Both the position numbers and the translations under genes were made by a program. The notes below the pieces were generated by a model that worked only from the letters and a program-made list of their open reading frames with translations, made no database searches and was not told the DNA's origin. Below, in pieces: positions 28,414 to 55,392 of a stretch of 64,000 nt of DNA (the first letter of the stretch is position 1; every line of letters starts with the position of its first letter). This DNA is from an uncultured Pseudomonadales bacterium (GTDB taxonomy: Bacteria; Patescibacteriota; Microgenomatia; UBA1400; PJMF01), in NCBI GenBank assembly GCA_964491115.1, contig CAZBEW010000001.1:62936-126935 (forward strand), read 5' to 3'.

Positions 28414-29490
28414 TTAAGCCTGATCTGACATTTCCAACCAACGCTCAATATCAATAGCGGCCATCGCTCCAGAGCCAGCTGCCACCACTGCTTGACGATA
28501 AAGACTATCAGTCACATCACCAGCGGCAAAGACGCCAGGAACAGAAGTCATTGTTGGAAAATAATTTTCTGCGGCTGCATTTTCTTCTTGATTTAATTCC
28601 ATAAGTGCTTGAGCATTACCAAATTGTTTGGTGGTGATATAGCCTTGTTCCTTGGTTTTTACTTGATCGAGAAAGATAGTGCTGTTGGGTCGATAGCCAA
28701 CTGCCACAAATACCCCATCAGCGTTCAACTCAGTTTCTTTTCCTTCTTGGAGAAGTTTGAGTCCAGTCACCCGTTGGCCATCACCCAAGATTTCTTTAAG
28801 CTCGGTATTCCACAAAATTTTAATTTTTTTATCATTTAAGACACGCTCTTGCAAGGTTTTGCAGGCACGAAGTTTATCTCGACGATGGATAAGAAAAACC
28901 TGATCAGAAAATTTAGTGAGCGCCAGAGCATCTCCCAAAGCACTGTCGCCACCCCCAACCACAACAACTTTTTTATCTCGATAAAAAGCTCCATCACAAA
29001 CCGCACAAAAACCAACGCCTTTACCCATGTATTCTTTTTCTCCAGGAACAGCCAGTTTCAGATGTTCAGCACCCGTACTAATTAAGACGGCTTGGGCTGC
29101 ATAATCAGCCTCCTTGCTATTTCTTATCAACTCTATTGTCTGGGCTAATTCTTCTGGAGACATATTTTTGATGTCTTCATAATTCACATTTTCTGGCAAA
29201 GAAGTCCACAAACGAAAAGGACGCTGACTAAAATCAACTGCTGTAATTTGCTCATGGCGAAGATCCGCACCAAATTTAGCAACCTGTTTTTGCAAGTCTA
29301 AGATAAATTGAGGACCGGGCACGCCATCAGGAAAGCCTGGAAAATTATCAACACTTCTGGTGAACATTAATTGACCGCCCACACTTAAACCACTAAATAA
29401 GACCGGCTTTAATAAAGCTCGCCCTAAATAAATGCCCGCAGTATAACCCGCTGGACCAGAACCAATTACTGCCACTGATATGTTTTGCAT
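28414..29490 (-). CDS. trxB: Thioredoxin-disulfide reductase
   Basis: Start MQNISVAVIGSGPAG (ATG 29490, with AGAGGA upstream). Redox-active CAVCDG. FAD and NADPH GxGxxG/A motifs. A roughly 35-aa insertion relative to canonical TrxB. Confidence 0.85.
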   Translation of the reverse strand: MQNISVAVIGSGPAGYTAGIYLGRALLKPVLFSGLSVGGQLMFTRSVDNFPGFPDGVPGPQFILDLQKQVAKFGADLRHEQITAVDFSQRPFRLWTSLPENVNYEDIKNMSPEELAQTIELIRNSKEADYAAQAVLISTGAEHLKLAVPGEKEYMGKGVGFCAVCDGAFYRDKKVVVVGGGDSALGDALALTKFSDQVFLIHRRDKLRACKTLQERVLNDKKIKILWNTELKEILGDGQRVTGLKLLQEGKETELNADGVFVAVGYRPNSTIFLDQVKTKEQGYITTKQFGNAQALMELNQEENAAAENYFPTMTSVPGVFAAGDVTDSLYRQAVVAAGSGAMAAIDIERWLEMSDQA

Positions 29491-29562
29491 AAAATAATCC
29501 TCTATACCGATTTTAGCTAGCTTTATAGCCAAGCTAGATTTATATTTTAACTAGATTTGCAT

Positions 29563-29904
29563 TTAAGCTAGAGCTTGTTCAATCATTTCCTTGTAGGCAT
29601 TTTCTCCAGGAAAACCGATTTTACGATCAAATTCTACCATTTTATTGTCTTCGCGTTTAAAGATAATTACTGTGGGAATACTCATCACATTAAATTGCCC
29701 AGCAATATCTCTGGCCTCATCAATGTCGACTTTAACAATGAGCATTTTGTCTTTATATTCATCAGCTAATTTATCCATGATTGGAGCAGCCATTTGACAA
29801 GGACCACACCACTCAGCAAAAAAATCAACTAAAACTGGAGTTTGAGCATTATCTAATGTGCTTTGAAAATTACTACTGTCTAAATGTTGTGCTGGCATAA
29901 GCAC
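29563..29904 (-). CDS. trxA: Thioredoxin
   Basis: WCGPC active site. Confidence 0.9.
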   Translation of the reverse strand: MLMPAQHLDSSNFQSTLDNAQTPVLVDFFAEWCGPCQMAAPIMDKLADEYKDKMLIVKVDIDEARDIAGQFNVMSIPTVIIFKREDNKMVEFDRKIGFPGENAYKEMIEQALA

Positions 29905-29919
29905 CTTTCTTTATAATAA

Positions 29920-30180
29920 TTATTTTAATAATTCTTTTAAAATTGAATTTAACTGTTTTTGCTCCCGATCATTAACGCAGCGATTAGCAGCCCCAGTTAA
30001 AACATCTCTAGAAACTCTGGCTAAAGAGTTACGCACGGCCGTAATCTGTTGAGCTATCTCAACGCAAGACCGCTCGTCCTGATACATGCGGATTAAACCA
30101 TCAACCTGACCCCGAATACGTTTTAATTGAGCAATTGTTTTATCTTCTGCATTAATGGTGATTTTATTTTTGAAAGCCAT
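29920..30180 (-). CDS. CsoR/RcnR/FrmR-family metal-sensing repressor
   Basis: 86 aa with LKRIRGQVDGLIRM and conserved Cys/His positions (C38, C68-region). Confidence 0.75.
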   Translation of the reverse strand: MAFKNKITINAEDKTIAQLKRIRGQVDGLIRMYQDERSCVEIAQQITAVRNSLARVSRDVLTGAANRCVNDREQKQLNSILKELLK

Positions 30181-32108: not shown

Positions 32109-32759
32109 ATGTTAATTCATACTTGTTGCGCCGATTGTTTTCTCAAGCTCTATCAATCTTTGAGCGAGGAAACGCAAGCAACTGTGCAGATATTTTTTTA
32201 TAATCCCAATATTTACCCTAGAGAAGAACATCAAGCTCGATTATTAGCCATTAAAAAAGTTGTGAAAAGTCTAAATCAAGACATTAAAATTATTGTCGCC
32301 AATTATCAACCTCAAGACTATTTTCAAACTATCAAAAAATTAAAGGATAATCCTGAAAATCGTGATGCTTCTAAAAATCGTGAAAGTCTGAAAAATGGTG
32401 AAGGTTTGAAAAATCGTGAAAACTGTGAAAACAAAAGTGCCGACGATCGTTTCACGATCATTTCACGACAAAAACGCTGCCCACTATGTTGGGAGCTCAG
32501 GCTTAGAGCCCTCTTTGAAAGAGCTCAGGCAGAAAAAATTTCTCTAGTTAGTTCAACTTTATTCAGCAGCAACTATCAAGATTTAGACAAAGTGAAATTG
32601 ATTGCCCAAAAATTAAGTCGAGAATATCAAATTGATTTTTATGTCCCAAAAATTGATCAAGCGATGCGAGATCACTCCCATCGCGGTTTTTATAAACAAA
32701 ATTATTGTGGCTGTCTTTATTCCTTGCTGGAGAAAAGTCGTGAAAAATATGATGTTTAA
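32109..32759 (+). CDS. queH: Epoxyqueuosine reductase QueH (DUF208) carrying an in-frame repeat insertion
   Basis: N-term HTCCADC, CPLCW and C-term YKQNYCGC Cys clusters. The middle carries roughly 30 extra residues of (K/E)N(R/G)E-type hexapeptide repeats. Confidence 0.75.
   Translation: MLIHTCCADCFLKLYQSLSEETQATVQIFFYNPNIYPREEHQARLLAIKKVVKSLNQDIKIIVANYQPQDYFQTIKKLKDNPENRDASKNRESLKNGEGLKNRENCENKSADDRFTIISRQKRCPLCWELRLRALFERAQAEKISLVSSTLFSSNYQDLDKVKLIAQKLSREYQIDFYVPKIDQAMRDHSHRGFYKQNYCGCLYSLLEKSREKYDV
32355..32444. repeat. 18-bp tandem repeat (about 5 degenerate units) inside queH
   Basis: Units GAAAATCGTGATGCTTCT, AAAAATCGTGAAAGTCTG, AAAAATGGTGAAGGTTTG, AAAAATCGTGAAAACTGT, GAAAACAAAAGTGCCGAC. 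Inverted copies TTTCACGAT x2 follow at 32448-32468. Confidence 0.7.
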
Positions 32760-42424: not shown

Positions 42425-43342
42425 TTATGGGGCATAAGCCGTGAGGCTTTGCCCTGGAAAGGTGGCGGCCGCCCAGGCCTTTACCTGGGCTTCGGTCCAG
42501 CTGCTTGGCATTAGCCAAGCTTGGACCGTTTTATAAGCAATATTGTCCTGGGCATTCACCCAGAACACCAGCTGTTCATCCAACAGCGCGACAGTAGTCG
42601 CGCCTCGAGCGCCAATGCTGGCGCTGAAAGCTGAGCCATCCCAAACCCCGTGTACCGAAATAGACTGGGGTTGGTCAAAGTCGGCGTTGTCTGGCAAAAC
42701 CACCACTGGTGTGGCTTGTCCTAAGGGAAAAACAAAAATGTTTTTCCCGTAGTGGACAAAAATTGTCCAGTCGTAACCATTTGCTATCTGGTTCTGACGT
42801 TTTGCCGTCACGAACTCAGATGCGATCGGCGGCTTTGTAGTGGAAAAGTCCGCCATGTTCCAGTCTGCGGGATACACCCACAGGCTGGCCTCACGAACGG
42901 AGAGTTCCCACTCCACACCTGGGTCAAAGACCCAAATATGGTGCTCGGGATCGAGGGTCTGGCGACCCTCAATCAAAATGTTGCAACCAGCATAGTCTGC
43001 CAGCTGCTTCATTCCTGAAGACAACTTATAAAAGCCGTCTTCTTTCAGGTTGCTGAGGAATTCGATCCTCATTCCCTGATATCCGAGCGGACAATCCGCG
43101 ATTGCGACCACGGGTTCTTCCACCGGTACTTCAACCACTGGTTCTTCAACTACGGGTTCGACCACGGGTTCGACCACCGGGTCTTCGACCACGGGGTCGA
43201 CCAGCACCGGTTCCACGATAGGTACGGTTGTTTCCTTTACCTCTGTTGGAGGCAAAGGGGGTGCTTCTTGCTCAACCGGAGTCGAGCAAGAGGCGAGTAA
43301 ACTCGCCACTAACAACAAAACAAACAAAATTTTTGCGCGCAT
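42425..43342 (-). CDS. Lipoprotein with a (P-V-V-E)n linker and a C-terminal globular domain; the gene is strongly GC-rich relative to the genome
   Basis: Real start MRAKILFVLLLVASLLASCS (ATG 43342, SD AAGGAG 8 nt upstream). Lipobox L-A-S-C. Roughly 30 aa of PVVE-type repeats. The DNA is visibly GC-rich (GGCGGCCGCCCAGGCC...), unlike all neighbours. Confidence 0.7.
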   Translation of the reverse strand: MRAKILFVLLLVASLLASCSTPVEQEAPPLPPTEVKETTVPIVEPVLVDPVVEDPVVEPVVEPVVEEPVVEVPVEEPVVAIADCPLGYQGMRIEFLSNLKEDGFYKLSSGMKQLADYAGCNILIEGRQTLDPEHHIWVFDPGVEWELSVREASLWVYPADWNMADFSTTKPPIASEFVTAKRQNQIANGYDWTIFVHYGKNIFVFPLGQATPVVVLPDNADFDQPQSISVHGVWDGSAFSASIGARGATTVALLDEQLVFWVNAQDNIAYKTVQAWLMPSSWTEAQVKAWAAATFPGQSLTAYAP

Positions 43343-53978: not shown

Positions 53979-54029
53979 ATCTAATCATATAACATTAAAA
54001 ATAGACTTATCTTAAGGTTAAAAATCTTG

Positions 54030-54113
54030 CGGAAGGGGCGGGACTCGAACCCGCGATGCCCAAAAGGGCGTCAGTTTTCGAAACTGATGCAATAGCCACT
54101 ATGCGACCCTTCC
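54030..54113 (-). tRNA. tRNA-Ser (anticodon CGA), type II
   Basis: Acceptor GGAAGGG/CCCTTCC. Anticodon stem TCAGT/ACTGA with loop TTCGAAA. Long variable arm. T-arm GCGGG-TTCGAGT-CCCGC. Confidence 0.85.
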
Positions 54114-54194
54114 TATTGTAATTCTAACGCGAAAAGCCCAGAAAAACAAAAAAACAAAACAATCTTCTTCGCTCCAGGAAATTTTAGAAAAGGG

Positions 54195-54268
54195 TGCGCC
54201 CAAGGGGATTCGAACCTCTGACCTTTTGTTCCGCAAACAAACGCTCTATCCAACTGAGCTATGGGCGC
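54195..54268 (-). tRNA. tRNA-Arg (anticodon GCG) candidate
   Basis: Acceptor GCGCCCA/TGGGCGC. Anticodon stem TTTGT/ACAAA with loop TTGCGGA. T-loop TTCGAAT with one A.C mismatch in the T-stem. Discriminator A. Confidence 0.7.
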
Positions 54269-54336
54269 TGTTCTCAAGTCCCTATTATCTCAAAAATCAG
54301 CCCCTAGTTCAATAGGGGCTGATTTTTCAATTAAAA

Positions 54337-55158
54337 TTATTTTTTTAGCTCTTTTACTTCGGTATGACAAAACCACCAATCAAAACAATCTTTTTGACCG
54401 CGTCTTTTCTCAGCCTCTACCTCATCTTTCGCAGGTGGAATGATAACGTGATCGCCAACTAAATCATTGTTCGGCCAATTAGCTGGCATGGCCACTTTAT
54501 TAGCAGTCGAAAATTGCAAGGCTTTAACGACTCGTAAAATTTCTTCCATGTTACGACCTACTTCTTGAGGGTAATATAGAATTAAACGAATAATTGCCTT
54601 ATCATCAATCACAAAAACAGCTCTCACGGTGTCACTCCCTTTTTTCTCATGAATCATACCTAGTGATTTACCAACTCTACCCATGCTGTCGGCAATAATT
54701 GGGAAAGGAATTTTCACGCCTAATTTTTCATTAATCCATTCTGTCCACTTAATGTGAGAAAAAACTTGATCAACGGATAAACCAATTAACTGTGTATTAA
54801 TTTTTTTGAAATCTGGAGCCATTTTAGCAAAAGCGACAAACTCGGTAGTACAAACTGGAGTGAAATCTCCAGGATGACTAAATAAAACTGTCCACTTACC
54901 CATTAAATCTTGAGGAAAGGATAAGCGACCGTGGGTGCTGTGTACCTCAATTTGAGGAAATTTATCACCAATTAGGGGGAAAGAAGAAGTGCTTTGACTG
55001 CAATGCTTGTCGGGACATTGATTAGAACACTTATTTGAGCAGTTGTCGGAGCACTTTTTGGAGCACTGGCTGGGACACTGTTCTGGGCAATTTTCAGAAC
55101 ACTGACAATCTTGGCAAGGACAATCTGGGCAACAATTATTTAATTTTTTTTCTGACAT
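54337..55158 (-). CDS. Peroxiredoxin (Prx6/1-Cys-like, thioredoxin fold) fused to a roughly 56-aa N-terminal Cys-rich CX3C ladder
   Basis: Prx core FTPVCTTE. The N-terminus [53 protein letters not shown] has 15 Cys. The C-terminus has an extra CxxxxxxC. Confidence 0.8.
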
Positions 55159-55392
55159 GTAAACCTTTCCGTTTTAAATACTTAGTCTTTTGAGTTTAAC
55201 AAAAAAAATAAAATAATCAATAAACAAAAAACATTTATTTATCAATCTATAATAAGTTTTAAGAGTAAAAATTTGTTTCTTAATTCAAGTAACCCAGTTG
55301 AGTACATTGTTGAGTATATTACTAAGTATCTTGCTGATTACGCTGCTGATTTCTTGCTAAATTTGCCCCCAACTTATTTATCAAAATTTTGA

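Follow-up and report, generated by a model that had tools for sequence, protein, structure and literature searches.

Here we describe a peroxiredoxin (Prx) gene located on a 64,000-nucleotide stretch of contig CAZBEW010000001.1 (assembly GCA_964491115.1; the whole stretch is hereafter referred to as the window), which encodes a Prx core preceded by a Cys-rich N-terminal tail. As judged from its composition, its motifs and the outcome of our searches, this tail is metallothionein-like in character and lies outside every metallothionein family. Moreover, conserved gene order and a tree of the Prx cores indicate that the tail is common to a single syntenic lineage of Prx within the Microgenomates group of Patescibacteria. 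The features of the gene and of its flanking regions are given below in window positions.

54337..55158, minus strand: Prx coding sequence, complete, 273 amino acids plus TAA stop, Cys-rich tail fused to core
54982..55158, minus strand: N-terminal extension (tail), codons 1–59, with 14 Cys and 0 aromatic residues, predicted to be disordered
55099..55134, minus strand: conserved head motif, codons 9–20, with CxCxxCxC, a spacing common to most tails of the clade
55000..55101, minus strand: Cx3C ladder, codons 20–53, seven 12-nt (S/P)-x-x-C units followed by PDKHC, a degenerate in-frame tandem repeat
54340..54981, minus strand: Prx core, codons 60–273, assigned to the archaeal-type Prx6 subfamily, AhpC-TSA and 1-cysPrx_C
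54850..54852, minus strand: codon of the peroxidatic Cys103, invariant in a 38-sequence alignment
54367..54387, minus strand: CFDWWFC (C258, C264), C-terminal resolving-Cys motif, aligned to 3w6g and 3a2w
55164..55170, minus strand: Shine-Dalgarno sequence GGAAAGG, 5 nt before the ATG
54292..54327, minus strand: intrinsic terminator hairpin with U-run, directly past the Prx stop codon
55233..55271, minus strand: conserved upstream elements from a 7-ortholog alignment, a TTTTTACTCTTAAAAC block and an imperfect palindrome ATTGAT-N2-ATAAAT (ATTGAT-N2-ATCAAT in relatives)

A cysteine-rich tail with a degenerate repeat

The tail carries 14 Cys in total (residues 9, 10, 13, 15, 18, 20, 24, 28, 32, 36, 40, 44, 48 and 53), corresponding to 24% of its residues, and contains no Phe, Trp or Tyr within residues 1–59; the Cys outside of the tail are residues 103, 258 and 264. 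CC, CxC, CxxC and CxCxxCxC motifs are all present, and by this composition the term 'metallothionein-like', used for the tail in an initial annotation of the DNA, is a fair one. The same annotation had counted 15 Cys within the first 56 residues, nine of them in a C-x3-C ladder. The dense tail is indeed encoded, albeit with 14 Cys, and the exact Cx3C run extends from C20 to C48 (eight Cys, seven intervals), with the supposed ninth member, C53, coming next at a Cx4C spacing.

At a background of 1% Cys, the chance of encountering at least 14 Cys in 56 residues is P ∼4e-16, and most open reading frames (ORFs) of the window, which has a G+C content of 35.6%, contain 0–1% Cys. No second plausible gene with a Cys-dense segment was found in the 64-kb window; the sole other ORF with five Cys in 30 amino acids is 88 amino acids long (42752–43018, plus strand) and lies inside a longer ORF on the opposite strand. 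After Prx, the most Cys-rich proteins of the window among ORFs of more than 100 amino acids are a homolog of the epoxyqueuosine reductase QueH (32109–32759, plus strand; 8 Cys, 3.7% Cys), which is unrelated to the Prx tail, and, on a par with it, CutA.

At the DNA level, the 12-bp tandem repeat previously noted to encode the ladder is real, but degenerate. TRF reports a period of 12 with 3.3 copies only and a 75% match (55028–55067), and the seven 12-nt ladder units share a mean pairwise identity of 61%; the repeat of the window is, by the look of its units, old and degenerate and not a fresh one. The Logan contig L002 (SRR8925789), which was assembled separately, encodes an identical 273-amino-acid protein, and NCBI has a record of it as well (P0245).

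Assignment of the core to the archaeal-type Prx6 subfamily

Residues 63–192 match the Pfam family PF00578 (AhpC-TSA, 103 bits), followed by PF10417 (1-cysPrx_C, 41 bits, residues 213–253), and residues 55–269 reach 340.4 bits with the NCBIfam model PRK13189 (NF009668; cut-off 211), scores which bear out the earlier recognition of a Prx core with FTPVCTTE. AhpC models remain below their cut-offs (AhpC equivalog, 90 versus 272 bits; PRK15000, 86 versus 301 bits). All 38 sequences of the alignment share the PxxxTxxC active site and the conserved Arg (P96, T100, C103 and R179). Over residues 58–269, the nearest solved structures are 6q5v, ApTPx of Aeropyrum pernix (2cv4/1x0r) and PhPrx of Pyrococcus horikoshii (3w6g), with E = 4e-85 to 1e-77 and alignments that set in at their residue 3–4, and the nearest PDB entries comprise 10 or more chains each. 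The C-terminal CFDWWFC aligns to ECYDWWFC (3w6g) and RCLDWWFC (3a2w); the C-terminal Cys pair, which the initial annotation had regarded as an extra one, is by this alignment the normal CxDWWFC resolving-Cys motif of this Prx group. In the AlphaFold2 model, the predicted local distance difference test (pLDDT) score exceeds 90 across most of the core and drops below 50 for residues 1–57, where a weak helix is seen only at residues 36–46.

Overall, these results mark the enzyme as a genuine archaeal-type Prx6-subfamily (ApTPx/PhPrx-like) Prx and as an ordinary member of that group. Since the closest PDB entries hold 10 chains and genes for thioredoxin (Trx) and thioredoxin reductase (TrxR) are present within the window, we infer that the Prx probably acts as a thioredoxin-dependent peroxidase and assembles into an (alpha2)5 decamer.

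Evidence for translation of the tail

Beyond codon 1, no in-frame ATG, GTG or TTG comes up before codon 86, which already lies within the Prx fold. The GAAAGG core of the Shine-Dalgarno sequence, located 5–7 nt before the start, is invariant in all seven orthologs aligned, one of which is tail-less. Length differences between orthologs are in frame, amounting to 60 bp in comparison with L001 and to 15-bp steps in a sister lineage, and in five loci all ladder units end in Cys, with TGT/TGC wobble changes at these codons and drifting spacers (S/P, D/E/K/N and K/N/Q).

Taken together, the single start at codon 1, the conserved Shine-Dalgarno sequence, the in-frame indels and the synonymous changes at Cys codons argue that, on present evidence, the Cys-rich tail is translated, with codon 1 being the only usable start. 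An untranslated tail, with the enzyme starting downstream of the ladder, was the possibility that the initial annotation had held up against its own reading; in view of the same four observations it is hardly credible. In addition, no unusual fold was detected in the 5′ mRNA at the Prx repeat (z = −0.49), and an RNA-level role of the repeat was rejected on this basis.

Variation of the tail among relatives

We collected 27 distinct Cys-bearing tails, two of which are the same tails, placed behind upstream starts that had been mis-called. Pooled, the tails contain 22.6% Cys, followed by Ser, Asn and Gln, together with ∼1% aromatic residues, and CxCxxCxC is present in 22 of the 27. Between close relatives, the tail Cys count varies from 2 to 16, and the number of (S/P)xxC ladder units ranges from one (L003 and L093) and two (L001) to seven in the window and nine in L092/P0248; the short alleles include P0254 with 4 and P0241 with 8 tail Cys. 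The core of P0250 is 96% identical to that of the window Prx, yet its tail has 35 residues with 8 Cys; the tail appears to change much faster than the core.

A different unit is encountered in a Woesebacteria cluster, in which a 15-bp repeat, TGTCAGTGCCAAGGT (94% match), encodes CQCQG and is present in 1, 2, 3 and 4 copies in otherwise near-identical proteins of 243, 248, 253 and 258 amino acids, respectively. Most of these repeat alleles are found on 10–40 contigs; they derive from metagenome assemblies, which are prone to repeat mis-assembly, and several of them recur on many contigs.

The general layout of the tail, as it emerges from these comparisons, is a conserved head of the CxCxxCxC type and, behind it, a repeat section that gains and loses units in frame. 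Whether orthologs carry the extension, and whether its repeat number varies, had been raised with the initial annotation: relatives do carry it, and the repeat number differs between species as well as between close strains.

The window tail is the second-longest found and the longest one in an intact gene. The longest ladder allele is that of L092 (4001–4846), with a 67-residue tail, 16 Cys and the nine (S/P)xxC units mentioned above, and its Prx gene is broken by an in-frame TGA replacing a conserved Arg codon, CGA (EEIL*VVKAL). This TGA could reflect a pseudogene, a sequencing error or recoding.

Distribution and synteny

The best full-length matches carry the annotation Candidatus Woesebacteria, Pacebacteria or Paceibacterota (Patescibacteria group, Microgenomates group). 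In a neighbour-joining tree of the cores, calculated without support values from 14 clade members and 24 outgroup Prx, a Cys-rich N-extension with 2–14 Cys is found in 12 of the 14 members of the clade that includes the window Prx, and in the 24 outgroup Prx the N-terminus is without exception short and free of Cys. The order helicase, pseudouridine synthase, HAD hydrolase, BipA, RarA, Prx, variable segment, patatin and DNA_alkylation is conserved, indicating that these Prx genes are orthologs residing at one chromosomal position.

Scans of GTDB genomes and of JGI metagenomes added only L003, L042 and L043 (one variant), and a profile of the tail plus the first 45 core residues retrieved Prx fragments only and no further tail-bearing members. 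Three seemingly long matches (L064, L066 and L071) were rejected: they come from high-GC contigs, have no Cys-rich segment and owe their length to read-through upstream. L043, which encodes a tail-bearing ortholog of 248 amino acids, is located on a contig of 804,852 bp (Ga0209510_1000001) that could be a near-complete Patescibacteria genome.

Searches for relatives of the tail

Searched on its own, the tail gave no Pfam match at E ≤ 10, no NCBIfam match, no PDB sequence match, no shared words in a word index of 5.8e9 proteins and no HMMER match among 1.84e9 representatives; these negatives are weak ones, the query being of low complexity and the clustering at 50% probably representing tail-bearing Prx by tail-less sequences. 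Within residues 1–59, neither the ferredoxin spacing CxxCxxCxxxCP nor two CxxCG knuckles ∼30 residues apart are present. As residues 1–59 lack a hydrophobic stretch, we rejected a signal peptide or lipoprotein, and likewise a precursor of a ribosomally synthesized and post-translationally modified peptide (RiPP) or a SCIFF-like precursor, as no radical-SAM/maturase neighbour is found in any syntenic locus and the segment is fused to an enzyme. Full-text literature searches brought up no bacterial Prx, from Patescibacteria or otherwise, for which a Cys-rich extension had been described, and the database entries of the tail-bearing proteins are annotated simply as 'peroxiredoxin'.

Gene control and genomic neighbourhood

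The conserved upstream region and the strong terminator after the stop codon mark the Prx gene as a separate unit. Across the orthologs, TTTTTACTCTTAAAA and a palindrome ATTGAT-N2-(A/T)TCAAT are conserved ∼75–90 nt before the ATG, in an alignment of the window, L092, L003, L040, L036, L041 and L004, whose coding cores are only ∼72–93% identical; the tail-less ortholog has these blocks as well. We consider them a candidate promoter or operator for some regulator. Past the stop codon, the terminator hairpin is nearly symmetric, with an A-run before and a U-run after it, and separates Prx from tRNA-Arg(GCG) (54193–54268) and tRNA-Ser(CGA) (54029–54113). A consensus terminator scan missed this hairpin at 54292–54327; on direct folding it has an energy of −24.8 kcal/mol (z = −6.9), and 0 of 200 shuffles fold as well.

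The initial annotation had taken the CsoR and CutA genes of the window as a hint at a copper theme. Both genes are present, but a copper regulon link through them was rejected. The CsoR-family regulator (29920–30180, minus strand; 86 amino acids, PF02583) lies 24 kb from Prx and directly upstream of trx and trxR (28414–29904), with which it forms an apparent operon (28414–30180, minus strand) encoding the regulator, a thioredoxin (WCGPC) and a 372-amino-acid thioredoxin-reductase-like flavoprotein. At the Cu(I)-ligand positions of CsoR, it carries Cys39, Ala64 and Cys68, the His of the C-H-C site being missing, and it looks more like a two-Cys CstR-type thiol/persulfide sensor of the Trx system than like a copper sensor. 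CutA is located 0.9 kb downstream of Prx, past the two tRNA genes and a GNAT gene, and is a neighbour of Prx only in the window and in the close relative L092, being absent from the syntenic L036, L040 and L041.

Proposed function and alternative explanations

The composition and motifs of the tail, its predicted disorder, its retention in the clade and the inward orientation of N-termini in Prx rings lead us to favour, tentatively and at somewhat less than even likelihood, a model in which the tail would act as a metallothionein-like metal-thiolate (Zn and/or Cu(I)) and redox buffer, linked to the turnover of peroxide and replenished by Trx/TrxR. Classical metallothionein segments show the spacing CxCxxCxC, and modular repeat expansion and duplication of Cys modules are typical of metallothioneins. 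According to this model, the reduced tail thiolates would serve as ligands of Zn(II) and/or Cu(I), both soft metal ions, the 14 Cys of each subunit providing a capacity of ∼4–5 Zn (∼3 Cys per divalent ion) or ∼7 Cu (∼2 Cys per Cu(I)). If the enzyme forms the ring of its closest solved homologues, ten tails with ∼140 thiols would be gathered in the ring lumen beside the active sites, where peroxide turnover would both shield the thiolates and be coupled to their redox state. Oxidation would release metal or consume thiols, Trx and TrxR from the same window would re-reduce the tail, and the repeat number would tune its capacity.

Several observations weigh against this model. In the searches above, the tail showed homology neither to a metallothionein family nor to a solved structure or another protein, and, as the Cys spacing is not conserved between tails, no defined metal site can be proposed. 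No metal transporter, chaperone or conserved metal-related gene adjoins Prx in the syntenic loci, the CsoR-family protein is devoid of the Cu(I) His ligand, and the inward geometry of the N-terminus is taken from Prx1-type structures and extrapolated to an archaeal-type Prx. Furthermore, the tail-less P0002 and P0005 are nested within the clade, P0270 goes with P0002, and the tail-less P0286 falls into a cluster of at least 90% identity with the tail-bearing P0012. These short Cys-free variants (P0002/P0270, P0005 and P0286) indicate tail losses, and the presence of three of them among tail-bearing relatives suggests that the tail is dispensable.

Metal need not be involved at all. A metal-free thiol/disulfide module could serve as a redox capacitor re-reducing the disulfide of the peroxidatic and resolving Cys (Cp-Cr) several times before thioredoxin is called for, or could, when oxidized, form inter-subunit disulfides that staple the decamer or convert it into a holdase, much as the single extension Cys of Prx4 links dimers. 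Retention of Cys number rather than of exact spacing would suit a thiol pool acting in bulk, the N-extensions of Prx rings touch one another and chaperone clients, and the Cys-rich N-extension of the Entamoeba Prx is tied to catalytic efficiency with no metal being reported. However, CxC and CC are poor for intramolecular disulfides and typical of metal-thiolate clusters, and a reduced cytosolic poly-Cys tail is generally expected to bind Zn or Cu anyway; we regard this explanation as rather improbable, if a serious one. Somewhat less probable still appears a largely neutral, slippage-prone low-complexity insertion, in which a TGY-containing repeat close to the 5′ end would grow and shrink by replication slippage and would be tolerated as the N-terminus points into empty ring space. 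Such an insertion would fit the copy-number alleles among near-identical proteins, the presence and absence of the tail inside clusters of at least 90% identity (P0012 and P0286 as above, and likewise the tail-bearing P0003 and the tail-less P0270), the frequent losses, the predicted disorder and the fact that the longest allele resides in a gene with an in-frame stop. Nevertheless, Cys-richness persists in a Cys-poor proteome while the cores of the clade diverge to ∼72% identity, different units (Cx3C, CQCQG and CC/CxC runs) all enrich Cys, and the units of the window, old as they are at 61% identity, each keep their Cys and the 4-codon register.

An Fe-S or rubredoxin-like electron-entry domain feeding the peroxidase might be considered, as the organism is an anaerobe, the head has two CxxC pairs (C10–C13 and C15–C18) and CP dipeptides are present; with a Cys number of 2–16, a range that no fixed cluster site could accommodate, neither CxxCxxCxxxCP nor rubredoxin-knuckle spacing and no Pfam or NCBIfam match, it is very unlikely. 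The metal-thiolate and redox-buffer model itself can be taken further, to a Prx decamer acting as a cage in which ten repeat-tunable poly-Cys tails, with 140–160 thiolates, are charged and discharged by peroxide flux, an extension that we consider speculative and, as a whole, unlikely. Such a cage would constitute a large metal-thiolate store, or the main protein-bound thiol buffer if the reduced-genome bacteria of the candidate phyla radiation (CPR) have no low-molecular-weight thiol, and populations would adjust its capacity by gaining and losing Cys units in the manner of a variable-number tandem repeat (VNTR).

Few antioxidant enzymes are as well studied as Prx, and metallothioneins of bacteria are rare and have been catalogued poorly. 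What is new in a bacterial Prx is the metallothionein-like, repeat-variable poly-Cys tail kept across a Patescibacteria clade, which, if our model is true, would represent a new coupling of peroxide chemistry to metal/thiol buffering in organisms with minimal redox machinery. If the tail is inert, the locus would show in-frame repeat variation being tolerated at the N-terminus of a ring-forming enzyme. Natural alleles that differ in their number of tail Cys (0, 2, 4, 6, 8, 10, 14 and 16) and have nearly the same core provide a ready-made series for recombinant work, uncultivated though the organisms are.

Comparison with known systems

Prx of the ApTPx/PhPrx type share the PxxxTxxC active site and the C-terminal CxDWWFC with the window Prx, whereas their chains (2cv4/1x0r, 3w6g and 6q5v) begin within 2–3 residues of the aligned core and have no Cys-rich extension. 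Metallothioneins, such as the bacterial SmtA/BmtA and the beta-domain of the mammalian proteins, resemble the tail in their high Cys content, in having essentially no aromatic residues, in their CC, CxC and CxxC motifs, with CxCxxCxC among them, in their predicted disorder without metal and in having evolved through duplicated Cys modules. They are, however, small free-standing proteins, while the window tail is part of a 273-amino-acid enzyme and has no detectable homology to them.

The copper storage proteins Csp1 and Csp3 are likewise rich in Cys arranged as CXXXC, a motif favoured by Cu(I) in Csp3 (PMC5519932). In contrast to these folded four-helix bundles with a Cys-lined core, the window ladder has a Pro every 4–8 residues and is predicted to be disordered. 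A 'TrxA thioredoxin-metallothionein chimera' described for Runella aurantiaca has a linker of 56 residues between a Trx that is 96% identical to enterobacterial TrxA and a metallothionein that shares 98% identity with Synechococcus SmtA (PMC13578184); it may be a cloning- or expression-vector fusion contaminating the assembly rather than a native gene, and we give it little weight as a precedent.

N-terminal extensions of Prx reaching into the ring are known from Prx4, where the extension projects into the centre of the decamer and its Cys links dimers (PMC3234919), and from Leishmania mTXNPx, where it lies in the decamer centre and binds chaperone clients (PMC6368585). Unlike the window tail, these extensions are not Cys-rich (a single Cys in Prx4) and not repeat-variable.

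The closest precedent is the 29-kDa Cys-rich Prx of Entamoeba histolytica (EhPrx/Eh29), which also bears a flexible Cys-rich N-terminal extension, with residues 1–23 being unresolved (PMC13532219; PMC4009108). In its cryo-electron microscopy map, density at the centre of the decameric ring may stem from these Cys-rich residues, and among Entamoeba species the length of the extension differs and correlates with catalytic efficiency (PMC13532219). EhPrx is eukaryotic and belongs, as a typical 2-Cys Prx, to the Prx1/AhpC subfamily, whereas the window enzyme scores as Prx6-type (90 bits with the AhpC model, cut-off 272; 340 bits with PRK13189), and the bacterial tails differ from that of EhPrx in their Cx3C, CxCxxC and CQCQG repeats and their copy-number alleles. 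The Cys-rich extensions of EhPrx and of the bacterial Prx are independently acquired.

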